A stretch of 64,000 bases of DNA, taken from contig JACPCD010000007.1 of NCBI GenBank assembly GCA_016179955.1, positions 5,907 through 69,906 of the forward strand, written 5' to 3'. Shown here in pieces: positions 3,017 through 64,000 of the stretch. Origin of the DNA: Candidatus Woesearchaeota archaeon (lineage in GTDB: Archaea; Nanobdellota; Nanobdellia; Woesearchaeales; GW2011-AR9). Position 1 is the stretch's first letter; the number at the start of each line of letters is the position of its first letter. The position numbers and the translations under genes are program-made. Under the pieces are notes generated by a model. The model saw nothing but the letters and a program-made list of their open reading frames with translations, did no database searches and was not told where the DNA came from.

Positions 3017-3894
3017 GGGAGGGCAATATTTTCAATGAATTTGATATCTTTATCTGTAAGATTAAAGTCAAGTGCCAGATCCTCTTTCATATGAGTGGAA
3101 TTAGTTGTTCCGGTTAACGGTAATATCCCGATTTGCAGGGCAAATTTAAAGATAATTTGTGTTGATGTTGTATGTAATTTTGCGGCAAGGGGTTGTACTT
3201 GCGGCAACACCAAAGCATTCGCAGTTAGCAATGAAAATCCTTGATATATAATGCCTTTTTGGGTACAGAATTGCCGTATTTCTTTATCCCAGCCTAACTG
3301 CGCATAGCAGCGATTTTGCACGAAGGTTGGTTTTACAGCGGCTCGTTGATACAATTGTTGTAATTGATCGAGATTAACATTACTTATTCCAAGATAAGTC
3401 ACTTTTTGTTCTTTATGGATTGCTTCCATCTCCTGCCATACGTGCCAGTCAGCAGGTGCCAATCCTACCCCAGTAGAGGGGCCATGCAAGAGATAAGAAT
3501 CGATATAATTAGTCTGTAAATGTTGCAGTGAACTTTGAAACGATTGCCGTACTTGGGTGGCATAGTCAGCATATGGATTGTAGGGCAATCTATGATCTTG
3601 TCCATCAACAGAGGTGAATTTGGTTTGCAGAAAAAGTTGGTTTCGGTGAATACCGCTTTTAATGATGGCATTGCCCACTGCAGTTTCATTATAATGTTGG
3701 CGTTGATTGGCAGTATCGATAGCTCGAAAACCGGTCTTGAGGGCGGTAAGGACCAGATTTTCCGTAGCTTCTTCTTTCCAGGCAGTACCATAGATGATGA
3801 GTGGGGGTTGCATACTTTGAATAGAATGTTCTAATTTATAAGCGTTAGTGGCTTTTCGGTTAATATGAAGCATTTGTAATTTTTTATCTGTCAA
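3013..3894 (-). CDS. Aldo/keto reductase family oxidoreductase
   Basis: 293 aa. Carries AKR signatures (GTAWKEEATENLVLTALKTGFRAIDTANQRQHYNETAVGNAI and the LFLQTKF region). Confidence 0.75.
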   Translation of the reverse strand: MTDKKLQMLHINRKATNAYKLEHSIQSMQPPLIIYGTAWKEEATENLVLTALKTGFRAIDTANQRQHYNETAVGNAIIKSGIHRNQLFLQTKFTSVDGQDHRLPYNPYADYATQVRQSFQSSLQHLQTNYIDSYLLHGPSTGVGLAPADWHVWQEMEAIHKEQKVTYLGISNVNLDQLQQLYQRAAVKPTFVQNRCYAQLGWDKEIRQFCTQKGIIYQGFSLLTANALVLPQVQPLAAKLHTTSTQIIFKFALQIGILPLTGTTNSTHMKEDLALDFNLTDKDIKFIENIALP

Positions 3895-3931
3895 AATTAT
3901 AAAATGTTCACATTAGCCTACGAAAAACTTC

Positions 3932-4633
3932 TCAATCTTCAAACGCCAGCGAATGCATGCGCAGCCGCAGCACCACAAAGGCAATGGCACTAAATGTATA
4001 TCCGATTAGGTATCCCAAATCTCCTATCATCGCCACCGCACCATAATCCACCTGTCCGGCAGTATACGCAAAGAATAAGTCGCCTAACAAAATGAAGCAA
4101 CTGGAAACAAAAAATAATTTCAGGGAAGCACCAAAATCAGCCAGTTCCTGCGAAAAGAGCAGCACGCTTACCGCAAAGGCGACGATAAGTGAACTCAACA
4201 AAGGATAGACATAACTGAAAGTGGTGGCTGGCTGGATGAGCACGAACAGGTACAAGGCCACCAGAACAATCAGAACCCCTCCCACCAGCAGCTGGGGAAG
4301 CAGTTTGCCGCTGTGCGGATGCTGGCGGTACAACATCAAAGCTAATGCTAAAAAAGAAACCACCGTGAGAAAAGCCCCTCCTGACCAATACACATCCTGT
4401 ATTCCCAACAAGGATTGGTCGTCAAACACAAATTTGGTTAAGTAGTAAGAAACTTCCCCCAGCGCATACAACAGGTATCCCCACACCAGAAAGAAGAAAA
4501 TAAAGTAGTCTTTGTCTTCAAATAACTCCTTGAGCTTGTTGCGGAAAAATCCTTCCAGGGCCACAAAACCGGCCAATGCAGCCAACGCGGCTGCCAAGGC
4601 AATCAGCCCCTGAATCACGTTCCCTATCACCAT
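3932..4633 (-). CDS. Polytopic (~7 TM) membrane protein, function unknown
   Basis: 233 aa, entirely hydrophobic helices. No Schiff-base lysine or other catalytic motif was recognised. Confidence 0.4.
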   Translation of the reverse strand: MVIGNVIQGLIALAAALAALAGFVALEGFFRNKLKELFEDKDYFIFFFLVWGYLLYALGEVSYYLTKFVFDDQSLLGIQDVYWSGGAFLTVVSFLALALMLYRQHPHSGKLLPQLLVGGVLIVLVALYLFVLIQPATTFSYVYPLLSSLIVAFAVSVLLFSQELADFGASLKLFFVSSCFILLGDLFFAYTAGQVDYGAVAMIGDLGYLIGYTFSAIAFVVLRLRMHSLAFED

Positions 4634-53616: not shown

Positions 53617-54585
53617 TTAATGCCGCCGCGAGAGGTACGTTATCTCTGGTGCCTCCGTGGGTATATTAGTATCAGGACGAAGCGCGTGCGTTAAGAAGAC
53701 GGCCCGTTTCTTGGGTCCCATGACCGAGCCTTTCACTAAAAGATATGGGTTCTTTACCAGGCCATAGCGGATGAATCCTCCCATAGGATTGACTTCATTT
53801 CCCTGTGCGCCAACTTTAAGCACGTGTTTGTTATATTCTGTTCGACTATGAAAGCCCATCTTGCCAGCCTGGGCGACGGTAAACTCAACCCGTTTGGGTG
53901 TCCAGGAACCTAGGGTGGCAATGCCCCGCTTGGTCTTCTCGGCTTTATGTTGCCGGATGGGAACACCATACCGCTTAACCGTCCCCTGAAATCCTTTGCC
54001 GATGGTGATGCCATGGACATCAATTAAATTTCCGGCGCTGACGACATCATTAATAGTAATCTCTTTCCCCAGCATCTCTTGGGCATAGCGTGCTTTCTCT
54101 TCCACGGTGCCGCCAATGGCAATTTCCTGCACTTGGGGCCGTTTACTGCCGCTGGCAATTAATGAGGGATGCGTCTGCACGATGAAGCGGAGATCGTCAT
54201 ACCCTTGGATACTCTCAAATGTCTTCCCCGCTTTTTTAGGTAGGGGAAATTTCTGGGCGAGGTGTGCCTCCAGTTTGGGAGCGGTGATAGATGCAAATTT
54301 CTGGATGCCGTACCCTGCTCGGCGGTAGAACGCAATGCCGATGACCGTTAATGGCGGACATTCCAGTATAGTTGCGGGGATCATGATTTTTTCGCCTTTC
54401 GTTAAGGATTTTGGGCGGTTATCAATAATCATCAGATGGGTCATCCCGGCTTTATAAGCGATAAAGCCTAATGGTTTAGATTTACCGTGGGCAGTCCAAG
54501 ACCTAATTCTAGCAACGGAATGGCGGGAGCGTTTCCGCGGCCAAAACTGCAAACTTCCCCGTCGTGGATGGCGTACATTACCCAT
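53617..54585 (-). CDS. rpl3: 50S ribosomal protein L3 (uL3)
   Basis: HPRRGSLQFWPRKR...GFIAYKAGMTH. Confidence 0.9.
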   Translation of the reverse strand: MGNVRHPRRGSLQFWPRKRSRHSVARIRSWTAHGKSKPLGFIAYKAGMTHLMIIDNRPKSLTKGEKIMIPATILECPPLTVIGIAFYRRAGYGIQKFASITAPKLEAHLAQKFPLPKKAGKTFESIQGYDDLRFIVQTHPSLIASGSKRPQVQEIAIGGTVEEKARYAQEMLGKEITINDVVSAGNLIDVHGITIGKGFQGTVKRYGVPIRQHKAEKTKRGIATLGSWTPKRVEFTVAQAGKMGFHSRTEYNKHVLKVGAQGNEVNPMGGFIRYGLVKNPYLLVKGSVMGPKKRAVFLTHALRPDTNIPTEAPEITYLSRRH

Positions 54586-55110
54586 GGTGTTATTGACAAC
54601 TGCATATAGCTATTATAGAGAGCTATTGACGTTCCGTGTAAGAGCCTCTACCGGTCCGCATCAGAGAAGATTTCCATGATGCTCGCCTTTTCAGGCTGAT
54701 TCACCCCAGCATTATTGGAAAGCTCGACAGTATATATCGGCTGCCAGTGTAATTCCGGGTACGTGAACCTCTAAACCCGGGGGTTATTTATAAAGATTTG
54801 GGTGGAGTTGCAGGGGGATTGAGGATAACGGGAGTTATACGTAATTTTTTATTTGCTGAAAATCTGATCATAGGTGCTTTCGTTTATCGAGGACGAAACG
54901 AGTGACTAATTGAAACTAGACATAACGGATGATAAACGGTTCGCTCCGCTCTCGCAAATTTTTACTTACTTTAAAACTGATGGGGGGAATTCCGTAACGA
55001 TGACTAAACTGAAAACTAACTAAAACGAGAGGGGGCGAGAAAACTAATTATTCTAATAGGAATATATTAATCAATAAAATATTTATATAGGAATACTATT
55101 TACACAGATT

Positions 55111-55590
55111 ATGGAGATAAATGATGCTATTCAAAAAGTAAAGCCAAAAATAGAAGAAAGTAAGCTTACAGCAAAGAAGAAAAAAGAAGATGAGGCTAAA
55201 AAGGAGAGAGAAGAGGAAAAAGAGTTACATCAACAAAATACACGGCAATTAAGAGGGGTAAAAAATAAATGGTTCTCAAAAAGAGAAGAGTTGGTAAAAG
55301 ATACTGAGTTGATGACCGGAATAAAGTTCTTAGAAAGTAATGGTGAGTATTTCCACTTATGCTCTGGAAATCACTGGGCAGTATATTTCTGTAGTGATGG
55401 AAAATTCAAAATGCAAAGATGGGGGATGTATATGGGTAACGAGTTCATCAGACCAATCACTTTAGAAAATATTTATTTTATTGAACAAAAAGACATAGAA
55501 AAAGTAGCTAATCTTGACTTTAAAGAAGAATTAAAAAAACAAATACTTCAACTTGGTACTAAGAAATATGATGATGATGATGAAGATTAA
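55111..55590 (+). CDS. Lysine/glutamate-rich hypothetical protein (first gene of the AT-rich island)
   Basis: 159 aa with a low-complexity N-terminal half and a GC content much lower than the core genome. Confidence 0.3.
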   Translation: MEINDAIQKVKPKIEESKLTAKKKKEDEAKKEREEEKELHQQNTRQLRGVKNKWFSKREELVKDTELMTGIKFLESNGEYFHLCSGNHWAVYFCSDGKFKMQRWGMYMGNEFIRPITLENIYFIEQKDIEKVANLDFKEELKKQILQLGTKKYDDDDED

Positions 55591-55596
55591 CGCACT

Positions 55597-56259
55597 TTAG
55601 AAATGGTTTACTGATACCCACTTACAAAATCCACATTCTTCAGAGGGGGCGGGAATTTCTGTTTCTAAAACTTGAATAGCTTTCTTAAAAATACTTTCAG
55701 CGTTTTTGATATTGACTTTAATTTTGACCAAATCAGTATTAAAACAAACATGACCACTCTCTTCAACTTGATGGGGATGATAAAAAACTAAATAAGTATA
55801 ATCTTCTGTTTCATAACCGTTTTTTCTTAAGAGAAAGTTGTAAATATCCATTTGATCTTGATAATGCTCGTGAGTGTCTTCTTTCAGAGGATAACCTCTT
55901 GTCTTATAATCTAAAACAACTAATTTCTTACCTTTTACAAGAATATTATCAATCGCTCCCCTGAAGAGATTGCCTTTTTTATCCGTCCATTGAATTCCTT
56001 TAAAATTGCTTCTCCAAACCTTGAGCAATTCTTCGTCATCAAAAAGTTTAACCTTTCCGTTTAACTCTTGAAGTTCTGGCGGAAGTTCTCCTTTTCTCAT
56101 AAAAGAATCAAAGTGTTCTTTCAGAATCCTATCCATTCCGCTTGGTAAAGAGGGAAAGATTGAATCTGGTCTTTTAATCCCTTTATTGAAATTAAGCCAG
56201 AAGCATCTAGGACAATCTTTCAATAAACTTAATGATGATGGGCTGAATTTGTAGGTCAT
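55597..56259 (-). CDS. Cas4/RecB-family PD-(D/E)xK nuclease (DUF83-like) with a cysteine cluster
   Basis: N-terminal DCPRCFWLN. GAIDNILV (motif II Asp), VVLDYKT (D-x-K motif III), HYQDQMDIY (QxxxY). C-terminal ECGFCKW plus an additional Cys give 4-5 Cys, consistent with an Fe-S cluster. Confidence 0.55.
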   Translation of the reverse strand: MTYKFSPSSLSLLKDCPRCFWLNFNKGIKRPDSIFPSLPSGMDRILKEHFDSFMRKGELPPELQELNGKVKLFDDEELLKVWRSNFKGIQWTDKKGNLFRGAIDNILVKGKKLVVLDYKTRGYPLKEDTHEHYQDQMDIYNFLLRKNGYETEDYTYLVFYHPHQVEESGHVCFNTDLVKIKVNIKNAESIFKKAIQVLETEIPAPSEECGFCKWVSVNHF

Positions 56260-56261
56260 TT

Positions 56262-58544
56262 TTAACTAAATATAATCTCATTTAATTTTTTTATTTCATC
56301 TTCAGTTAGCTTATTCCTTGCATTTGGATTTAGAATAATGTCTCCTTTCAGGATTATTCTTGGATTTGAATCTACAAATACCAATTCTTGTTTAAAATAT
56401 ATTGCTCCTGAAACTATGTCTGTATTTTTATTTTTGTGGGAAAGACTATCTTCTTTCCTGGTCATATACTCGTTGACAACTTTCCCTGTCTTCTTCTCAA
56501 TTTGCCATGTATAAGCAAGACTCCCTAAGAAAGTGTCTATTAATTGATGTTCATCAATCGTTGAATTACTCCTATCAATTACCACAAAAAACAGGTCTTT
56601 TCTTTTACCACTCTCAATCTCTTGTAACGTTTTATTTGCGAATAATTGCCTATATTTTTTATCAATAGTAGAAAATGCCTTATTTTTTAGAGCAACAGCC
56701 CCATTCGCCAATCTTAATTCTCTATCCATTTTTGGTCTGGTTATTTCAAAGTAAATATCTCTCTCAAATAGATTAACCTTCAAATCCAAATTTTTATCAG
56801 TCCTATTTGGGGGCAATGGTTCTATTGCTTTGATACTTTTATCTTTAAATCTGTTTATAAAAATTAACTCGCTGAAATAATCCCAGAAATAGTTATCGTT
56901 GGCAAAATTTTGTTTAATGCTTTTTGTAAGATGTTCTTTCTGTTTATACTTCTCATTCTTTTTCTGCTCAATGGTTGCTATGTCCTGATTTAGTTCATTC
57001 AGATATGCTTGAGGCCAGAATTTGCTTCTTGCAAAATCAAGTTTTAATGCTCTATCTAACTCGGAATTTTTTTCAGAAATATTAATGTCATCTAAATTAG
57101 GTTGTTCATTTTCTCCTAACCACAAAAGAGGGGTATATTGCTTCTTTTTCTTTGCTTCGCTGATTACATCTTTTGCATATCTATACAGGTCTGGATATTT
57201 CTTGAGATTATCCTCAATTTTGGTAAAATCATAATCTTCTTTTCTATTCCTAAACTGGTTGAGAAGTTCTCCTGCGAAATCTATTAAAAAATCATAATCG
57301 TCCCTAGTGAATGTTGATTTTTGTTTCCGCTCTCGATATTTATCTTTGTTAAAATCAATGAAACCTCTTTCTTTAGTCCTCTTAATTAAATTATCAATAA
57401 GCTTAGTTACAATATCTTTCTTAGTTATGTCTTGGTATACATTACCAATGATTACTTTGTTTAACTCAAAGAAGAGGTATTTCTCCTCTTTATCTGATAA
57501 ATCTAATTTTAATACTTGATCTAGAGCATAAGCTGTATGGTGTTTGGATAGGGTTTTAAATAAATGAGGGAAAATGATGATATATGATTTTGATTTTTTA
57601 GTTTGAATATTTTTATAATTCTCCAAGAAATATTTAGTAAATAGCTTGTTCTTCTTAACAAGTCCTTCTAATACCCAGTCAAAATGCTTTAATTTAAACT
57701 CTAAATCTCTATTTAACCAGTAGATAAATAAGTCTGATATTTGTGTGTATGGTTTTGGAAATTTTCTTAACACTTCTACGATTTTATCTATTACCACCTC
57801 ATCTAAATCTTTTGAATATTCAATAAGCTCTATAATTTGCTTTTGGTTTAGTATGTCCTGAAAAGTTAATCTATCAAAAACTAAGTATGTAATATTCTTT
57901 TCTTTTAGTTTCACTAACTCGAGAATTTTACTGTAAAAATAAGTCTTGTTTTTCTTATAGAATATCAAGCAGATATTAGTAAACTCTTGAAGCACTTTCC
58001 TATCTTGAGAATTAGATACTTTGTCAAGATAGGAGTAAATTCCCTTTGGTAACTTTGAAAAGTCGTATTTTACTTGTATTGCTTTCAATAGGGAATTTGT
58101 TAGGGGGTATTCAATCTTCTTTTTCAAGTGATTTAACAGGGCTTCGTTATTGTTTATTGAGAAGCCGCCCAGCATTAACCCGGAGATTACTTTAAAATCA
58201 TTATCTTTTGATTTAGTAATTATTCTTTCATAAAGAGAAATAGCAAAATCCGGTTTATTTTTTCCAATATCTTCCAATATTCTTAAAAATGGTCCCTGAG
58301 CCATGTCTCTCTTAATCTTTTCATAAATCTTCTCTAATAGTACAATATACTTGTCAGAGCTTTCTGCTAGGTCATAAGCGATTGCAGAAACAAGTTCAGA
58401 ATAACCCCAGAAATCTGATCCTGTGAGAAAATGCTCAATCAGTTTGTATTTTTCTTCATTAGGTAATTTAGACTTATGACTATTGTAAATCTTTATTTGT
58501 TCTTCAAATTTATAGTACTTATCTTTAAGTTCTTCTTTAATCAT
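56262..58544 (-). CDS. Large hypothetical protein (760 aa), no recognisable domain
   Basis: AT-rich codon usage. It overlaps both neighbours by a few nt, consistent with an operon with the MTase/helicase genes. Confidence 0.4.
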   Translation of the reverse strand: MIKEELKDKYYKFEEQIKIYNSHKSKLPNEEKYKLIEHFLTGSDFWGYSELVSAIAYDLAESSDKYIVLLEKIYEKIKRDMAQGPFLRILEDIGKNKPDFAISLYERIITKSKDNDFKVISGLMLGGFSINNNEALLNHLKKKIEYPLTNSLLKAIQVKYDFSKLPKGIYSYLDKVSNSQDRKVLQEFTNICLIFYKKNKTYFYSKILELVKLKEKNITYLVFDRLTFQDILNQKQIIELIEYSKDLDEVVIDKIVEVLRKFPKPYTQISDLFIYWLNRDLEFKLKHFDWVLEGLVKKNKLFTKYFLENYKNIQTKKSKSYIIIFPHLFKTLSKHHTAYALDQVLKLDLSDKEEKYLFFELNKVIIGNVYQDITKKDIVTKLIDNLIKRTKERGFIDFNKDKYRERKQKSTFTRDDYDFLIDFAGELLNQFRNRKEDYDFTKIEDNLKKYPDLYRYAKDVISEAKKKKQYTPLLWLGENEQPNLDDINISEKNSELDRALKLDFARSKFWPQAYLNELNQDIATIEQKKNEKYKQKEHLTKSIKQNFANDNYFWDYFSELIFINRFKDKSIKAIEPLPPNRTDKNLDLKVNLFERDIYFEITRPKMDRELRLANGAVALKNKAFSTIDKKYRQLFANKTLQEIESGKRKDLFFVVIDRSNSTIDEHQLIDTFLGSLAYTWQIEKKTGKVVNEYMTRKEDSLSHKNKNTDIVSGAIYFKQELVFVDSNPRIILKGDIILNPNARNKLTEDEIKKLNEIIFS

Positions 58545-59196
58545 TTTCCCACCTAAAGTAATTTACTATTTTGTATTTATTGAGTTTACGATTTTTTATT
58601 CTGAACAAATTACATCCAGAGCAGAATGGTGATGCTATGGTCTTATAATAATTATTTTTTGATAATTCATGAAGAACAAAGACCATTTGATCAAAAATAA
58701 GCTCAGGAGATGAATATCTCTCAATACATTGATTTAAGACATCTTGCTTTTGTTGGATTTCACCAACATCACCAAAAATTAATACAGCATCATTATAAAC
58801 AGAATAAGAACCTTTGTTAAAATAATTAATTTTGAGACTATTTATATCAATTAAGATGAACTGAATTTCAGAGATATGGATGATCTTTTGTATTTCTTGA
58901 ATTAATTTCCTATTTTTAAAATTGATCTTACAAAACTTTTTAACTTCCTCAAGATATTCAGAATTACCTGCGCCGGTAAAAACATATTTGTTCTCTATTT
59001 GAAATATTTTCTCTGTTTGATTTACCCCTATTGGTCTTTCAGCGATAGATATTGGATAATACTTTTCTCCACCAATATCTATCATATCTTTTATTGAAAT
59101 GTTGTTGTAATCTATAAGAGACCCAGATTCTTGCCTATCTGCACAAACTAACACTGATTTATCTTTCTTAAGATTTATAACAATAATTGCAGTCAT
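58537..59196 (-). CDS. Hypothetical protein (219 aa)
   Basis: No motif recognised. Its start overlaps the MTase gene stop (59193-59196). Confidence 0.35.
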   Translation of the reverse strand: MTAIIVINLKKDKSVLVCADRQESGSLIDYNNISIKDMIDIGGEKYYPISIAERPIGVNQTEKIFQIENKYVFTGAGNSEYLEEVKKFCKINFKNRKLIQEIQKIIHISEIQFILIDINSLKINYFNKGSYSVYNDAVLIFGDVGEIQQKQDVLNQCIERYSSPELIFDQMVFVLHELSKNNYYKTIASPFCSGCNLFRIKNRKLNKYKIVNYFRWEND

Positions 59197-62100
59197 TTTC
59201 CAAACTCCTCAACAATCTTGATCTCTTCCGGCGTCAGCTCGTATAATTTGTACACTAACTGGTCAATCTCTTTCTCCAAACGCTTTACTTTGGCTTGTTT
59301 GTCAGGATTGTCTAAATAATCATCGTCTTTGGTGATGGAGAGGATTTGGTCGACGAGGTGGATGAATGGTTTTTGCTGGTCAGGAGAAATTTCTTTAATT
59401 GGGATTTCTGATAATGGTGCGGAATATAATTCTAATAAATCGCCTTTTCTTTTTCCTTTATAATATAACCAACAAAAATATAATTTTGAATTCAATAGTC
59501 CAGTTATATACTTTAAGTTAACATCTTGAATTTTCTTTGTAATAAAGTAAACATCTCTTGAGGCGTACCAAGGGATATCGCAATATGCAAATTTATTCGT
59601 TTTTGATCTATAAGGGGTTAATATTTTTTCTGCCTCAAAGTTCATATCTAATCTAGGTGTATTTAATACCCACCAATTACCTCTTCTAAAAGCTCCTCTT
59701 AAATTAGCCCCTTTTCTAGACGAAATTTCTGTTTTAAACATAGATAAATACTCATAGATGCCTTTTAAATCAAAGATATTTTCTTTAATTTTCTCATGTA
59801 GATACAGTATGTACTGATTTGTACTTTTCTTAAAATAATATTTATCAATATCTGAATTTTTATAAAATGGTTTTAAATAATCTAATTCCTTTTTTGATTT
59901 AATTATTTCTTTTACTTTGTCACTAGAAATGACGTAAACCTTATCCATGCTACTTTCTAATCCGATTAATGTGTTGCATATACTTCCTAAGGGAACAGCA
60001 TTCTTATCTAATACCATTTTAGAAAATATTTGTTGAACTGGATTGTCAAAATTAACGTTGCCACTAACTCTAATGTATTTTTCATCACCTTCAAATAATT
60101 CTAATTGAGGAATATTATGATACTCTGTTTCCTCATCTTGCTTGAACAAAATAACATTTAGTATATTGGATGTTGCAAGTCCAGTTCTGTTTACTACAGA
60201 TGTAATTCCTAAAACAGATTTATTTTTTGATTTTGTAAGAAGAGTTATCATATTATGTTGACCTGCCGCAGATTCAAATACTTTTAATTCATTAAAATTA
60301 ATTAATTCTCTAATAACTGATCTTTGATATAAGTCAAATCTGAGTTTTTTAGCCCCTAATGCAGTTATAAAATAATTAGTAGTTATCATTGCAATTTGGG
60401 CATTATTTCTTGTCAAATTTAGTGCTAAATGAAAAAAGAAATAAAAATAATCCATTCTTCCAAGATAATACTCTTTTAAATTACCTTTCTGAACCTCAAA
60501 AAATACATCTTTATGTTTTCTTTCCCCAACATACGGCGGATTCCCTATCACCACATCAAACCCCGGATTCTCCCTTTGGAACACTTCTGCAAAATAAAGC
60601 TTCCATAAAAAGAATGGTTTAGATTTATTCTTCTTATATTCCTGCAATTTCTCAATAGCAGCACTATTTCCCTCTTCTTTAAGCGTCTCTTCAACCAATC
60701 CCCATTCTAACTTATCAATCTCTTCTCTTAATTGTTTTTTCAGCTTCCTATTTTGCTCATTGAAGAATTTTCTTTGTAATTCTTTTAACTCTTTTAATTT
60801 ACGCTGAGATTCTTTTATTCTTTTAGAAAGAGAATCATCTAAAGTAGCTTGAGAAGAAATTTTGTCTTTCCTTGCCTCTAATTCAATTTTCCGCCGTTCT
60901 TTTTCTAATTTCTCCAAATCCTTCTCAAAATTTTCTCCCTCGTAATCATCATACAATCTCTTAATTTTCCCACCTATTTCCGACAATTCTTTAGAATAAT
61001 CTCTCTTTACTTCTCCTAATAACTTCTCATCAAACAGCTTCTTGCCCTCAAATTCCTCCAGAAGTGAATTACCGCACATAATCTTATGGTCTAAGTTTGG
61101 CAGCGGTTCAATATTTCTGATACTTTCCTCATCTACTATTAAAGACAGCCAAAACCGCAATTTAGCGATATCAACTGCAGAACTATCAATATCCACACCA
61201 TATAGGCTGTTTTCGATAGCCTCACGCTTTAATTTGTAAGCGCTCCTATTTTTCTGCTCTTCCGGCTTAAAGAATATAGATAAAATCGACCTGGCTTTAA
61301 CAATTTCCGTCATCATTCCTACTGGAAAAGCTCCAGAGCCTACCGCAGGATCAACAACTTTAATCTCTTTTAGCAATTTATCAATCAATTCTTTATTTGC
61401 TATAATTGATTTAGGGAGATTTAACTTTTCTAATTCTCTATTTATTTCTTCTTCGAATACTTTAATAGAAATTATTCCTTTCTTTAATTTTTCTTGTTTC
61501 TTATCTATCTCTTGTAAAACACGAATAGAATTAGCTAGTGTCAAATCCCCTAATTGAATAAATTTTTCAATATCTTCTCTAACTATTTGGGTATTTGTCT
61601 CTAAATAATTAATCAGAGATTGCTGACACATATAATGGACAATCTCACGAGGAGTGTAAAAAGCTCCTTTAGACTTCCTGTCAATAACATCTAGTAGATT
61701 TTCAAATACTTTACCCAACATTTCAGGATCTACTGCTACCTCTTTTTCTAATGGCTCATCTTCTTTAACGGTAAAATTATAGGTATCAAATGTTTTGAAA
61801 ATATCCCTAAAGACATCATCGTCCAAATTTATTTTAGTGTCAATCCAATTATAATCATTTATTGGTTCGAATAAACCACCATTAAGAAATGGGATTTTAC
61901 ATTTAAACAAAGTGTGATAACCATCATCTCCTTCTCGGGGATTATTCAAAGCATCATAAAACAATGGTTCCAGAATATCATTAAAGAAATTCTTGTAAGT
62001 TATTATGTCTTTATCAAATAATTTCTTCATGAAATCTTTTGGACCAGTTCCCCATTCTTTGTTTATCTTCACACCAAGCCAACCTTTTTTCTGTAAGAAA

Positions 62101-62819
62101 TATAAGAATACTATCTGTCCTAATAATTTCTTAGAAAACTCGGTTGCAGAAATACTTTTCTCTTCAAATTCTTTCTGAACGTACTTATCATCACTAATCA
62201 CTTTCAGCAAAGAATCATTTAATTTTAAGAATAATTCTTTATACCGTTCAAAGAATTCTTTGGTAACTTTTTCAATACTAAACACACTTTCTAATTCTTG
62301 TAAAGTAGGGTTTCTATTTTCTTCTTCTACTAAGGCCAAAAACTGTTTTCTACAGGTATGATTCGGCTCATTTACCCCAACTAAGAACGAATATCTTTTT
62401 GCTGGGGTTAATTCTGGAATAACCTTGCCATTATCCGCTAAATTATACTCCATTTTAACGAAAGATAAACGCCAATCTTCCGGCTCATCACCGTAAAACG
62501 CCACTAAAGCCGCATCTTTGTGGTAATTACCGAGATACTTGGCAATAAAATTTCTTTGCATGGTTCTAGCTCTGTCCACAGAATCAGTTCTTTTCAGCTT
62601 AACGGTAAGAATATCCATCACTTTCTTATTAGAGTCAATATAACTGCCATAATTATGATAGGATTCAATATAATCTTTATATTCCCCCCACACTTCAGAA
62701 GTCTTTTCTTTAACTTCAAAACCGTTTAATAATTCTCGAACAAAGCGGAGAAAACGCCCTACTTCAAACTCTTGTCCAAAAGTTTCATTAAGTAAGTTAA
62801 CGGTTTGCTGTCTTTCCAT
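59193..62819 (-). CDS. Gamma-class N6-adenine DNA methyltransferase with a ~480-aa N-terminal region and a C-terminal TRD-like region (Type ISP/IIG- or PglX-like)
   Basis: 1208 aa. Motif I VVDPAVGSGAFPVGMM (Eco57I-like DPAxGSGxF) lies upstream of motif IV VIGNPPYVGERKHKD (NPPY), the gamma arrangement. A ~350-aa tail follows the catalytic domain. Confidence 0.75.
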   Translation of the reverse strand: MERQQTVNLLNETFGQEFEVGRFLRFVRELLNGFEVKEKTSEVWGEYKDYIESYHNYGSYIDSNKKVMDILTVKLKRTDSVDRARTMQRNFIAKYLGNYHKDAALVAFYGDEPEDWRLSFVKMEYNLADNGKVIPELTPAKRYSFLVGVNEPNHTCRKQFLALVEEENRNPTLQELESVFSIEKVTKEFFERYKELFLKLNDSLLKVISDDKYVQKEFEEKSISATEFSKKLLGQIVFLYFLQKKGWLGVKINKEWGTGPKDFMKKLFDKDIITYKNFFNDILEPLFYDALNNPREGDDGYHTLFKCKIPFLNGGLFEPINDYNWIDTKINLDDDVFRDIFKTFDTYNFTVKEDEPLEKEVAVDPEMLGKVFENLLDVIDRKSKGAFYTPREIVHYMCQQSLINYLETNTQIVREDIEKFIQLGDLTLANSIRVLQEIDKKQEKLKKGIISIKVFEEEINRELEKLNLPKSIIANKELIDKLLKEIKVVDPAVGSGAFPVGMMTEIVKARSILSIFFKPEEQKNRSAYKLKREAIENSLYGVDIDSSAVDIAKLRFWLSLIVDEESIRNIEPLPNLDHKIMCGNSLLEEFEGKKLFDEKLLGEVKRDYSKELSEIGGKIKRLYDDYEGENFEKDLEKLEKERRKIELEARKDKISSQATLDDSLSKRIKESQRKLKELKELQRKFFNEQNRKLKKQLREEIDKLEWGLVEETLKEEGNSAAIEKLQEYKKNKSKPFFLWKLYFAEVFQRENPGFDVVIGNPPYVGERKHKDVFFEVQKGNLKEYYLGRMDYFYFFFHLALNLTRNNAQIAMITTNYFITALGAKKLRFDLYQRSVIRELINFNELKVFESAAGQHNMITLLTKSKNKSVLGITSVVNRTGLATSNILNVILFKQDEETEYHNIPQLELFEGDEKYIRVSGNVNFDNPVQQIFSKMVLDKNAVPLGSICNTLIGLESSMDKVYVISSDKVKEIIKSKKELDYLKPFYKNSDIDKYYFKKSTNQYILYLHEKIKENIFDLKGIYEYLSMFKTEISSRKGANLRGAFRRGNWWVLNTPRLDMNFEAEKILTPYRSKTNKFAYCDIPWYASRDVYFITKKIQDVNLKYITGLLNSKLYFCWLYYKGKRKGDLLELYSAPLSEIPIKEISPDQQKPFIHLVDQILSITKDDDYLDNPDKQAKVKRLEKEIDQLVYKLYELTPEEIKIVEEFGK

Positions 62820-64000
62820 CTTTCATCATAAAATATTCTGAGAGAATAACCTCTTTTGGCCCGGAAGTGTTCGCACTGCTGACAAAAGTATCTTCAAAAA
62901 ATTCTGCATGAACTCCTGTTTTTATTACTGCCAATATTCTCAGAGGGCTGCTTTCTTTAGAGGTATTATTAAGAATATTTTTGATGGTTGGTTTAGGCAA
63001 AGAGCCTTCTTGCAATAATCTTAATACTTTTTGTAAGTAATCTTTGTCTTCCTCACTAAGCTCTTTGGCATTATTTAAAAGTGCTTTAACCAATTTAACT
63101 AGTCTTGCTTCTTGACCTCTATTTCCAGCGACATTAGTTTCCTCTTTTATAAACAACTCTTCAAAAGTTTTTTTATTAGCTTCTAGTAATGTATAAAATT
63201 CCGGCTCTAACTTTCCTGGTTTATCATCTTTTTCTGCGTGTAGCTTTTCAGCAGCAGTAAAAAAATCTACTTCTTTCACCTCTCCAACACTATTCCAGTA
63301 AATTTTACGTAATTTCCCTTTTCTAAAGAAAGTGAATAGCCCGGTACTCGTTCCCAATCGGGCAGTGCGTGATTTCTTAGGTAAGCGTTTAATTCGTTCA
63401 AATAAAGCATGATCATTATCTCTAATATCTCGCAGAAACGTTAAATAGCGCAATTCAACATCATCTTCTTCATTTTCTCCAGTTATAACCTCTTTGGAGT
63501 TGATTTTTCTAAATAAATCATGGGATTTGATTTCTTCATCCGTTAAAAGCCGAGCATCGTTACCAAGCATTTCAATAAATGCTTTAACTTTGGCTTCCGC
63601 TGCATCTTTAAGCTTAATTTCATTATCTACAGGTCCGGCAGGGAAGAAATTGTAAGTATAAATTTTATCAAATGGTAAATTCTTAGCCACACGATTAATT
63701 CTTCCTACTCTTTGCATCATTCGTACGGGATTCCATGGGATATCATAATTAATGACCACATTAGAACGATTTAAGTTAACTCCTTCAGATAGGATTTCAG
63801 TAGATACTAAAATCCTAATATCCTCTGCTTTATGTTTCACATTAGGATCAAAATTGTTGATAATTTTATCTCTGGTTGCTTCTGAGGAAATACTGGAAAA
63901 AGCTAAAACTTTATTTTCAAACTTCGGATTAAGTTTATCTTCCAGGTAAGAAGCAGTTTCTTTTGATTCTGTAAAGATAATTACTTTATTCTTCAGGTTT
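62797..64000 (-). CDS. SF2 (SNF2/Res-like) helicase, C-terminal RecA domain onward; the N-terminus lies beyond the window end
   Basis: The frame is open to the window edge (KVIIFTESKETASYLEDKL...). The helicase-C signature ILVSTEILSEGVNLNRSNVVINYDIPWNPVRMMQRVGRINRV is present. The 3' end overlaps the MTase ORF by 23 nt in another frame. Confidence 0.7.
   Translation of the reverse strand, partial: NLKNKVIIFTESKETASYLEDKLNPKFENKVLAFSSISSEATRDKIINNFDPNVKHKAEDIRILVSTEILSEGVNLNRSNVVINYDIPWNPVRMMQRVGRINRVAKNLPFDKIYTYNFFPAGPVDNEIKLKDAAEAKVKAFIEMLGNDARLLTDEEIKSHDLFRKINSKEVITGENEEDDVELRYLTFLRDIRDNDHALFERIKRLPKKSRTARLGTSTGLFTFFRKGKLRKIYWNSVGEVKEVDFFTAAEKLHAEKDDKPGKLEPEFYTLLEANKKTFEELFIKEETNVAGNRGQEARLVKLVKALLNNAKELSEEDKDYLQKVLRLLQEGSLPKPTIKNILNNTSKESSPLRILAVIKTGVHAEFFEDTFVSSANTSGPKEVILSEYFMMKDGKTANR

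Follow-up and report, generated by a model that had tools for sequence, protein, structure and literature searches.

The AT-rich island at the end of the 64,000-nucleotide Woesearchaeota window (the whole stretch of DNA analysed here) raises the question of whether its packed genes constitute a single defence system of a new kind, as a sequence-only reading had proposed, or several adjacent units. The island is a foreign, defence-related segment in the genome of a tiny archaeon. The GC content is 46.3% in positions 1-54900 of the window and 31.1% in 55100-64000, and values in 500-nt windows drop from 0.45-0.54 to 0.26-0.36 across 54750-55250, which places the abrupt compositional change previously located at approximately 55.1 kb at about 55.0 kb. 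The island is the only part of the window in which 2-kb blocks fall below 0.389 GC, every other block being at or above that value, and a low GC content relative to the flanks is likewise seen in most related loci. The step from approximately 50% to 31% GC lies in the spacer 5′ of rpl3 (minus strand, start codon at 54585), and the island thus adjoins the upstream region of rpl3, as had been described; neither a tRNA nor an Rfam family was found at the boundary. Within the island, five minus-strand genes follow each other in the same orientation, with overlaps of 23, 4 and 8 nt and then a 2-nt gap, so that the earlier description of genes overlapping by a few nucleotides applies to three of the four junctions but not to the last. 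A plus-strand ORF of 159 aa (55111..55590) occupies the low-GC stretch between the last of these genes and rpl3. It has a Lys/Glu-rich N-terminus and a poly-Asp tail. Pfam, NCBIfam and PHROGs gave no significant match for it and PADLOC no more than a marginal one (Csm3, E 0.0064), and it was not found adjoining the homologous genes in related loci.

The two genes farthest from rpl3, here termed module 1, resemble a restriction-modification system. The helicase frame (62797..64000, minus strand) is open to the window end and encodes the C-terminal 400 aa of an SNF2-family protein, in agreement with the SF2 helicase continuing off the window that had been read from the sequence. The fragment matches Pfam Helicase_C (1.3e-13), and its best hits are SNF2- and DrmD-like: DrmD (4.6e-24) and PLD_Helicase (5.9e-16) in PADLOC, and phospholipD_antiphage (3e-21) and DISARM_DrmD (5e-28) in NCBIfam, both of the latter far under their cut-offs. 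The homologous helicases of two related loci, L020 and L022, which have 69-72% nucleotide identity to the window, contain PLDc_2 (1.4e-9), RE_NgoFVII PLD and SNF2-rel_dom domains and match the PADLOC profile C3a139 'HKD+Snf2' at 1.4e-42. By homology, the full helicase is very probably a protein of about 1000 aa in which an N-terminal PLD(HKD) nuclease is fused to the SNF2 helicase. The neighboring gene (59193..62819, minus strand) encodes a 1208-aa Type IIG-like N6-adenine DNA methyltransferase matching Eco57I (5.4e-32), TaqI_C (4.9e-13), MmeI_Mtase and N6_Mtase in Pfam, the REBASE-derived PADLOC profile REase_MTase_IIG PDLC03596 (5.7e-186) and, over the catalytic core only, the DrmMI profile (5.5e-37). 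Since motif I (DPAVGSGAF) precedes NPPY and the TaqI_C-type TRD comes last, the enzyme is of the gamma class, and the proposed gamma-class methyltransferase with a TRD-like tail is well founded. The N-terminal part of the Type IIG profile covers its residues 1-480, with no Pfam nuclease domain and, by eye, no clear PD-(D/E)XK motif among them. Judged from these sequence matches, module 1 is a split two-gene ATP-dependent restriction-modification system, and it appears to be self-sufficient because the helicase relatives carry the N-terminal PLD domain. The PLD-nuclease/SNF2-helicase would be its translocating and cutting R subunit, while the methyltransferase would act as the M/S subunit that reads the site through its own TRD and marks host DNA. 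The PLD domain of the relatives thereby nearly makes a canonical restriction set of the helicase and methyltransferase, the kind of set that the sequence-only reading had held against novelty, but it accounts for only those two genes.

The resemblance of the island to described systems is partial in every case. Module 1 shares a nuclease, an SF2 motor, a gamma N6A methyltransferase and a TRD with Type ISP (LlaGI-type) and Type IIG (MmeI/Eco57I-type) enzymes. In contrast to Type ISP, these parts are divided between two genes, the helicase and the methyltransferase-TRD ORFs, which overlap by 23 nt, and the nuclease is of PLD/HKD type on the helicase (PLDc_2/NgoFVII-type in homologues) rather than an N-terminal Mrr-type domain. 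The 1208-aa protein has the gamma N6A methyltransferase fused to a TRD as in Type IIG enzymes, whereas a nuclease domain is not detectable in its residues 1-480. An SNF2 helicase and an adenine methyltransferase also constitute the DrmD/DrmMI pair of DISARM I and the ArmA/ArmB pair of ARMADA II, which need further effectors (PMC13463889). The island has the same succession of SNF2 helicase, adenine methyltransferase and further effector genes as DISARM class 1 and ARMADA II, and module 1 gives partial matches to the DrmD and DrmMI profiles of DISARM class 1. However, the DrmD scores are 98-111 bits against a curated cut-off of 610, DrmA/DrmB (DUF1998) and ArmC/ArmD are absent from 55-64 kb and from the visible related loci, and the downstream genes belong to wholly other families that are found also behind non-DISARM restriction systems. 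Similarly, the 1208-aa protein scores 68 bits on the PglX models of BREX against a cut-off of 500, and no island protein has a PADLOC match to PglZ or BrxC. With its split genes, low PglX scores and lack of matches to DrmA/DrmB and PglZ/BrxC, the island is evidently not a canonical Type ISP, BREX or DISARM locus, and the gene set corresponds to none of the systems compared, as the sequence-only reading had held.

The remaining three genes, termed module 2, begin with a 219-aa and a 760-aa protein that had been described as devoid of recognisable motifs. This is correct in that neither belongs to a Pfam or NCBIfam family, but not at the level of predicted structure, where the former has an Ntn fold and the latter combines an OloA-like solenoid and a domain of PD-(D/E)XK type. 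The concern that the two ORFs might be non-conserved pseudo-ORFs is dispelled by their dN/dS of 0.06-0.2 against homologues, because of which they can be regarded as real genes.

The 219-aa protein (58537..59196, minus strand), the ATG of which overlaps the TGA stop of the methyltransferase gene (ATGA), is a candidate threonine peptidase of proteasome-beta/HslV type. Its predicted structure, of mediocre confidence (pLDDT 64.5), is an Ntn alpha-beta-beta-alpha sandwich. The protein starts with Met-Thr without a propeptide, as do all 21 of 21 distinct relatives with respect to Met-Thr, and upon removal of the initiator Met the Thr would become N-terminal. In an alignment of 20 sequences of the family, invariance is confined to M1, T2 and D20. 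The likeness to the proteasome beta, HslV and Anbu peptidases (peptidase T1) thus extends to the N-terminal Thr without a propeptide, as in HslV, to an Asp at the Asp17 position and to a Lys (Lys33 equivalent) before the beta-strand with an '(A/S)G' motif, which is present in all aligned relatives; the GSG motif is kept by most other subtypes, whereas it is missing from the subtype found in the window. On the other hand, the protein has no sequence-profile match to PF00227, the family profile matches no PDB chain, and hhalign comparisons with Thermoplasma acidophilum proteasome beta and Escherichia coli HslV, for which approximate reference sequences were used, are not significant (E 0.05 and 0.02, respectively), with the alignments in register at Thr1. 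In further contrast to the proteasome and HslV, the gene lies in a defence island beside a solenoid-nuclease gene, without an AAA+ unfoldase or alpha subunits. The protein probably acts as a threonine peptidase.

The 760-aa protein (56262..58544, minus strand) consists of an N-terminal ARM/HEAT-type alpha-solenoid of about 530 aa (56955..58544), which is predicted with confidence, and a C-terminal alpha/beta domain of about 225 aa (56262..56939), predicted as a PD-(D/E)XK-type nuclease. The PADLOC profile PDLC03925 OloA matches residues 50-482 at 6.7e-8, a modest score in a low-complexity helical repeat region, and the OloA HMM matches 20 of 38 diverse relatives (best 4.7e-14), which identifies the solenoid as an OloA homologue. 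In the C-terminal domain an E-D-E-K set (E559, D587, E600 and K630) is conserved along with D657, R696 and N739; the model would place this domain in the PD-(D/E)XK superfamily, and its closest structural match is a tRNase toxin. In Olokun, adaptin-like OloA and the PD-(D/E)XK nuclease OloB form a 2:2 complex that degrades phage DNA (bioRxiv 10.1101/2025.07.10.664194). An adaptin/ARM-like solenoid is similarly paired with a PD-(D/E)XK-type nuclease in the 760-aa protein, which, judging from the profile matches and the model, is proposed to be a one-chain version of the OloA-OloB complex. Module 2 nevertheless differs from Olokun in several respects. Solenoid and nuclease-like domain form one chain, and there is no separate OloB gene, the neighboring nuclease being Cas4-like; the OloB profile matches no island protein, none of the 38 relatives and none of 29 C-terminal domains. 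Two extra partners are present, the proteasome-fold Ntn protein and the Cas4-like nuclease, the module is coupled to restriction-modification operons, and its hosts are DPANN, other archaea and CPR bacteria.

The last gene (55597..56259, minus strand), a frequent member of module 2, starts 2 nt past the stop of the 760-aa gene and encodes a 220-aa Cas4-like PD-(D/E)XK nuclease of the RecB family, as had been recognised. The protein matches Pfam PDDEXK_1 (1.2e-12) and, weakly, Cas_Cas4, as well as PADLOC Cas4 (3.3e-12) and the viral family phrog_31195 (1.1e-43). It shares with Cas4 the RecB-type motifs (D, D-x-K and Q..Y) and four cysteines, of which D104, D117-Y-K119, Q136..Y140 and C16/C19/C209/C212 are invariant in five orthologues. 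It differs in scoring under the curated cut-off of TIGR00372 (30.1 bits against 65), in its CxxC...CxxC cysteine pattern and in its context, as no cas1, cas2 or CRISPR array was found in the island and the gene is always beside the 760-aa family gene in related loci; its identity to orthologues also tracks that of the 760-aa gene. By sequence, the protein is therefore Cas4-like rather than Cas4.

The association of the two modules is itself modular. Among DPANN archaea, the pair of 219-aa and 760-aa genes, usually with the Cas4-like gene, is found behind four unrelated restriction-modification architectures: the PLD-SNF2 helicase with a IIG-like methyltransferase (window, L008, L011/L020 and L022), two unrelated single-chain Type IIG enzymes, one matching PDLC03604 in full length at 1e-193 (L005/L016) and one MmeI-like (PDLC03609; L006), and Type III Mod+Res (L004). 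In L001 the pair follows a 139-aa methyltransferase remnant. The upstream junction is a stop/start overlap in the window, L005, L008 and L001, reading ATGA where the loci were aligned, and in L006 the genes share one base. Relatives of the pair with 21-33% identity (L023 and L025) have no methyltransferase next to them, and in L025 they lie within a casposon-like element beside Cas1 and PolB. The large gene is found alone on haloarchaeal plasmids; other relatives of module 2 lie on plasmids and among transposases. The neighbors of the relatives include Shedu SduA_C, RhuM, PemK, HEPN/NTase, DUF4145, BREX-5, DUF499/DUF1156, Prok-E2/ThiF, the casposon-like Cas1+PolB element and transposases. No DUF1998, PglZ or BrxC is seen in the visible parts of any related locus, the contigs ending upstream of the helicase, and the viral contig collection contained no close relatives of module 2. 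A comparison of the window with L011 gives an amino acid identity of 92% for the large gene, 62% for the methyltransferase and 23% for the small gene, which is swapped cassette-like between otherwise near-identical loci; such an exchange is typical of arms-race loci. The novel defence module suggested for this island thus stands as regards a foreign, defence-related island, but its five genes do not form one obligate system, given that the pair occurs behind four architectures.

Gene order, conservation, fold predictions, the OloA homology and the modular association point to a pair of neighboring, co-transcribed defence modules instead of a single system of five genes, with module 2 being an Olokun-related nuclease module coupled to restriction, a reading to which a probability of approximately 55% can be assigned. 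Module 2 is an undescribed three-gene unit that, from its context and its homology to OloA, would most likely provide a second layer of virus defence. The OloA-like ARM/HEAT solenoid is the presumed sensor and scaffold, the fused PD-(D/E)XK-type domain would be the nuclease of a one-chain OloA-OloB-like unit, and the Cas4-like nuclease probably processes the DNA ends left by cleavage, while the putative 219-aa peptidase could act as an on/off switch of the nuclease or break down a viral protein. The nuclease and peptidase activities, a physical complex of the proteins and such a division of labour are inferred. In DPANN archaea module 2 directly follows the genes of restriction systems, whatever their type, with translational coupling between the two, and therefore both layers would be expressed together.

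A rather unlikely alternative is that all five genes form one integrated methylation-based system akin to DISARM or ARMADA, in which the methyltransferase, with the helicase, would mark self, and the Ntn, solenoid-nuclease and Cas4-like proteins would attack unmarked DNA, the methyltransferase variants being 'classes' of one system, as DISARM itself has a class 1 and a class 2. In 7/7 distinct DPANN loci with a visible upstream side, the gene immediately preceding the pair is a methyltransferase or what is left of one, mostly with overlapping stop and start codons, and this constant adjacency could mean a dependence on methylation; the partial DrmD and DrmMI matches of the helicase and methyltransferase, and the requirement of the DrmD/DrmMI and ArmA/ArmB pairs for further effector genes (PMC13463889), also fit such a scheme. 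However, the attached restriction modules appear complete alone, as Type III Mod+Res, full-length Type IIG (1e-193) or helicase with PLD, and the pair is kept under strong purifying selection (dN/dS 0.06) in L001 after decay of the methyltransferase. The pairs of L023 and L025, which have no methyltransferase beside them, the solitary large gene of the haloarchaeal plasmids, the lack of co-evolution between methyltransferase and large gene (62% versus 92% identity) and the absence of DUF1998, PglZ and BrxC from the visible parts of the loci likewise speak against it.

The gene prrC lies inside the EcoprrI hsd operon, and module 2 is similarly embedded in, and translationally coupled to, several kinds of restriction operon. 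Module 2 might accordingly be a guard that is silenced by, or monitors, the adjacent restriction enzyme and is triggered once a virus blocks restriction, e.g. with a DNA-mimic anti-restriction protein. In this scheme the solenoid would bind either the viral inhibitor or the enzyme that it has inhibited, and the nuclease domain, a possible tRNA-cutting enzyme, would be set free or activated by the peptidase. The tRNase toxin as the closest structural match of that domain agrees with this, as does the cassette-like turnover of the small gene, which would fit interaction with fast-evolving viral proteins, but recognition by one module would have to extend to four restriction enzymes of unrelated structure, and the pair is also found without a restriction neighbor, which makes the guard model improbable. 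Slightly less probable still is that module 2 is selfish or housekeeping cargo, either an addiction-type nuclease toxin with a protease regulator, which would stabilise the island, or a mobile set for DNA-end processing or repair. The casposon-like element of L025, the relatives on plasmids and among transposases, the close viral relatives of the Cas4-like gene (phrog_31195) and the differing flanks of the window and L012, despite 93.6% nucleotide identity, are all in keeping with mobility. Yet such elements typically carry defence systems, so that mobility is compatible with defence, and the homology to the validated anti-phage component OloA, the consistently defence-related neighbors (RM, Shedu, BREX-5, PemK and HEPN) and the lack of close relatives in the viral contig collection argue against mere cargo.

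Within the preferred reading of two adjacent modules, a more specific and decidedly tentative proposal is that a proteasome-family threonine peptidase serves as an integral, catalytically active subunit of an archaeal antiviral nuclease complex. HEAT-repeat activators cap the 20S proteasome, and the OloA-like solenoid may similarly bind the 219-aa peptidase as a partner or as a cap, so that proteolysis would control the fused PD-(D/E)XK nuclease; another conceivable target of the peptidase is the anti-restriction proteins of viruses, which it would degrade. If either mechanism holds, module 2 would represent a restriction-coupled second immune layer, the small subunit of which is exchanged between strains as a specificity cassette, and it would contain the first proteasome-type enzyme in prokaryotic immunity.

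The window changes composition abruptly towards its end, as had been claimed from the sequence alone: the GC content is 46.3% before 54.9 kb and 31.1% between 55.1 kb and the window end, the shift is completed within approximately 500 nt around 55.0 kb, and all other 2-kb blocks of the window are at 38.9% or above. To the left of this low-GC island lies an archaeal L3-L4-L23-L2 ribosomal protein operon on the minus strand, with the rpl3 start at 54585. Five minus-strand ORFs occupy the island, encoding a helicase fragment (62797-64000; Pfam Helicase_C) with its frame open to the window end, a 1208-aa methyltransferase (59193-62819; Eco57I, MmeI_Mtase, N6_Mtase and TaqI_C), a 219-aa small protein (58537-59196) and a 760-aa large protein (56262-58544), both without a Pfam match, and a 220-aa Cas4-like protein (55597-56259; PDDEXK_1 and a weak Cas4 match). 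The domain matches bear out the sequence-only reading of a helicase, an N6-adenine methyltransferase with a TRD and a Cas4/RecB-type nuclease, and the overlaps of a few nucleotides that it described between the genes are present at the first three junctions (23, 4 and 8 nt), whereas the last is a 2-nt gap.

The 525-nt spacer between rpl3 and the island (54586-55110) contains several G-rich runs and A/T-rich TATA-like stretches. Integration at a tRNA gene and the presence of an RNA element were both rejected for the boundary, since the spacer harbors no tRNA or Rfam family. Within the low-GC stretch, a plus-strand ORF of 159 aa (55111-55590) has a Lys/Glu-rich N-terminus and DDDDED at its end; searches of Pfam, NCBIfam and PHROGs gave no significant match and PADLOC a marginal one only (Csm3, E 0.0064), and no counterpart is found beside the module in the other loci. 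Placement at translation operons recurs among related loci on other contigs, with the L004 island located at rpS10/EF-1alpha/EF-2/S7/S12, that of L001 less than 7 kb from L7Ae/NusA-KH/S12/S7, and that of the window at rpl3.

The first two genes likely form a complete restriction system. The helicase fragment is SNF2-like, and its matches to the profiles 'PLD_Helicase' and 'phospholipase D-like anti-phage protein' cover the C-terminal portion of each. The metagenome contigs of the related loci all end at or inside the helicase gene; the near-full-length helicases of L020 and L022, cut at the contig start and 69-72% identical in nucleotide sequence to the window fragment, consist of a PLDc_2/NgoFVII-type PLD followed by SNF2 (PADLOC 'HKD+Snf2', 1.4e-42). 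The PLD of the window helicase would lie outside the window, and we therefore infer it from these homologues. The methyltransferase belongs to the gamma class, carries a TaqI_C TRD and matches a Type IIG profile at 5.7e-186. With a PLD-bearing helicase and a IIG-like methyltransferase with its own TRD, nuclease, motor, methyltransferase and specificity functions all appear to be covered by two genes, which, judged from sequence, represent a split relative of the Type ISP/IIG enzymes with a PLD nuclease. Membership in Type ISP, BREX and DISARM was rejected for the genes visible in the island and the related loci, in agreement with the earlier view that the island is not a canonical representative of any of them.

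The remaining three genes encode a second module. The large protein had been described as free of recognizable motifs, which holds for Pfam families; however, it matches the profile of OloA (6.7e-8), a component of the bacterial anti-phage system Olokun, as do 20 of 38 diverse relatives (best 4.7e-14), and OloA is the sole defence profile to match. An AlphaFold2 model built from 11 sequences (pLDDT 88.5) predicts an alpha-solenoid in residues 1-530 and an alpha/beta domain in residues 550-760, and Foldseek matches of the model in the PDB are confined to the solenoid. OloA is adaptin-like and binds the PD-(D/E)XK nuclease OloB as a 2:2 complex, which degrades phage genomic DNA and leaves host DNA intact (2025 preprint, bioRxiv 10.1101/2025.07.10.664194). 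Across 87 full-length relatives with identities down to 17%, the best-conserved residues all reside in the C-terminal domain (E559 96%, D587 91%, E600 95%, K630 72%, D657 88%, R696 87% and N739 90%). Sequence profiles of this domain gave no match in the PDB, Pfam (searched per member) or PADLOC (E up to 1), or in hhalign against the Cas4-like family; its assignment as a PD-(D/E)XK nuclease is therefore a structural prediction and not a demonstrated homology.

The small protein begins with MTAIIV...ADRQES, resembling the mature N-terminus of proteasome beta subunits. A Met-Thr start is present in 21/21 distinct sequences, and among 20 relatives (15-53% identity) only Met1, Thr2 and Asp20 are invariant. 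Most subtypes have 'IGSG' at the position of the proteasome GSG, and that of the window has FGDVG. Sequence profiles did not establish a link to proteasomes: the family profile retrieved only a spurious repeat protein from the PDB, and the hhalign alignments with T. acidophilum beta (E 0.05) and E. coli HslV (E 0.02) are in register at Thr1 and not significant. The fold model suggests with moderate confidence that the small protein is a proteasome-fold Ntn protein. A deposited Candidatus Woesearchaeota archaeon protein identical to it (100%), from a 71.9-kb contig with locus tag HYU22_01585, is annotated as hypothetical, which places the host among the DPANN archaea. The Cas4-like protein has the complete RecB/Cas4 motif set and four cysteines, scores under the curated Cas4 cut-off and is not in a CRISPR context; viral proteins are among its close relatives (phrog_31195, 1e-43).

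The small and large genes are a conserved pair. Ten close relatives of the large protein (93-40% identity) were found, all on Woese-/Pacearchaeota-type metagenome contigs; a homology search with a diverse alignment of the family added nothing to these 10 proteins, and a genome scan for the module returned solely the Pacearchaeota locus. A profile search (E<=1e-3) outlines a large family of at least 283 clusters at 50% identity, mostly of 700-760 aa, in DPANN and other archaea, on haloarchaeal plasmids and in one Patescibacteria genome. In all close loci a small gene (~215-240 aa) is immediately upstream of the large gene and overlaps its start. Pairwise dN/dS ranges from 0.06 to 0.13 between large genes, from 0.07 to 0.2 between small genes of one type and from 0.07 to 0.23 between Cas4-like genes; with such values of 0.06-0.2 for the two unassigned ORFs and the pair conserved, the concern that they might be pseudo-ORFs does not apply. 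Close relatives of the pair are absent from the viral contigs of IMG/VR, and a viral origin was rejected on this ground. A fusion of the small and large proteins in the family members P0029 and P0158 was likewise rejected, as their N-terminal extensions are not matched by the small-protein profile.

What precedes the pair varies with locus. An SNF2 helicase and a IIG-like methyltransferase are found upstream in the window, L008, L011/L020 and L022, a single-chain Type IIG enzyme (full-length PDLC03604 match, 1e-193) in L005 and L016, an MmeI-like Type IIG enzyme (PDLC03609) in L006, and Type III Mod and Res in the Pacearchaeota locus L004 (= L010), which has the Cas4-like gene and a Shedu SduA_C gene downstream. 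The window, L005, L008 and L001 each have a small-gene start that overlaps the stop of the restriction gene, as ATGA where the loci were aligned, and in L006 the two genes have one base in common. In L001 only a 139-aa remnant of the methyltransferase C-terminus precedes the pair, which is intact with a dN/dS of 0.06. The remnant ORF (L001:8948-9367, also L002:48-467) has 50% identity to residues 1073-1208 of the window methyltransferase. Over its final 197 nt it matches the window at 88% identity, and the ATGA overlap with the small gene is retained; the bulk of the methyltransferase has been deleted with the junction left behind. The last ~190 nt of the methyltransferase gene (59182-59378), encoding the '...LYELTPEEIKIVEEFGK' tail, are 76-91% identical across loci in which the TRD and small gene do not align, and the L001 remnant shares this unusual conservation; the conserved 3' end may serve as a recombination anchor or contain expression signals for the downstream module.

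The downstream side is variable as well. The Cas4-like gene immediately follows the large gene in the window, L004, L011, L012 and L015 and is instead upstream of the small gene in L014. It is absent in L005 and L006, where a convergent DUF2779 gene (~490-500 aa; L005:12290-13753, L006:10948-12456) is located just downstream, and the N-terminus of the DUF2779 protein has the 'ECPR..W' motif common to the Cas4-like family (hhalign E 0.0025). The Shedu-type nuclease gene of L004 (13001-14029) is right behind the Cas4-like gene.

Comparison of the window with L011 reveals a mosaic, with amino acid identities of 92% for the large, 90% for the Cas4-like, 62% for the methyltransferase and 23% for the small gene; the last 190 nt of the methyltransferase are 91% identical in nucleotide sequence, whereas the small gene and the TRD region have no nucleotide match. 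The window small gene is closer to that of L005 (49%), although the large genes of these two are only 57% identical, and the small gene occurs in at least three types, whose distribution does not follow the large-gene tree. This indicates that the large and Cas4-like genes travel as a unit and that the small gene and TRD are swapped in a cassette-like manner. The module of L012 shares 93.6% nucleotide identity with that of the window, yet the flanks differ, which implies that the module has moved or its neighborhood has been rearranged; in L012 (2732-4719) a 294-aa polytopic membrane protein overlaps the Cas4-like stop and is followed by a 261-aa Xer-type tyrosine recombinase.

Distant relatives extend these contexts. 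L023 (21% identity) has a Met-Thr small gene and a large gene followed by DUF4145, with the small protein missed by the family HMM and placed by position, Met-Thr start and motif pattern. In L025 (1475-10271; 33% identity), on a 910-kb contig, Cas1 (401 aa) precedes the pair and a divergent family-B DNA polymerase (902 aa) adjoins, which resembles either a casposon that carries the module or a variant linked to Cas1. The large gene lacks a small partner in L024, L026 and L027. That of L026 (5488-10235; 18% identity) follows a ubiquitin-like gene triplet, Multi_ubiq / Prok-E2_E / ThiF (E1), at a distance of 0.5 kb, amid four transposases and a KAP NTPase. In the Patescibacteria contig L027 no Ntn partner is found; behind the large-family gene comes the gene of an uncharacterised protein of 338 aa (3035-4051) with 'RNEIIH' in its C-terminus, which is an Rx4H motif as in HEPN RNases. 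On haloarchaeal plasmids the large gene stands alone, beside DUF499/DUF1156 genes in Haloglomus (L029:4871-6961), a BREX-5 PglZ cluster with an IS6 transposase in Halorubrum (L030:7004-9082) and a conjugation region in Halomontanus (L031:6929-9022); RefSeq annotates these relatives as hypothetical proteins.

The best-supported reading, which we consider somewhat probable (about 0.55), divides the island into two layers that are expressed together. One would be a complete ATP-dependent restriction-modification system and the other an autonomous Olokun-related nuclease module, which in DPANN archaea is added behind restriction operons irrespective of their type. The sequence-only reading had treated the island as one novel system, and indeed no described system matches the gene set. 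A single methylation-dependent system following DISARM/ARMADA logic (PMC13463889) is nevertheless unlikely: the pair recurs with unrelated restriction systems that are complete by themselves, it outlives the loss of the methyltransferase in L001, and distant relatives have the pair, or just the large gene, with no methyltransferase. Less plausible than this would be a PrrC-like guard of restriction, and a role as non-immune selfish cargo appears slightly more doubtful still.

In the two-layer model, by analogy with Olokun, recognition of foreign DNA or of an infection cue would fall to the solenoid and cutting to the fused PD-(D/E)XK domain, with the Cas4-like nuclease possibly processing ends and the Ntn protein exerting proteolytic control over the nuclease or attacking a viral protein; every catalytic activity, like the complex, is inferred. 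The module contains an OloA-related solenoid protein, but with OloB absent, a fused architecture and extra partners it is not a member of Olokun and is related to it via OloA. Literature searches yielded no precedent for a defence system with a proteasome-like, Ntn or threonine-protease component, and a 2026 survey of archaeal immunity contains no mention of Olokun or of a comparable module.

DPANN archaea reportedly have few CRISPR and restriction systems and many uncharacterised candidates (PMC12988326), and the locus provides a concrete, conserved and testable module for them. It ties Olokun, which is validated and mechanistically thin, to a large family with presumed sensor and predicted nuclease in one chain, and places a putative proteasome-fold Ntn protein in an immune context. 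Being located behind four kinds of restriction enzymes, the module is a natural system for studying the coupling of defence layers, and the cassette-like turnover of the small gene suggests that this component is under direct viral pressure.
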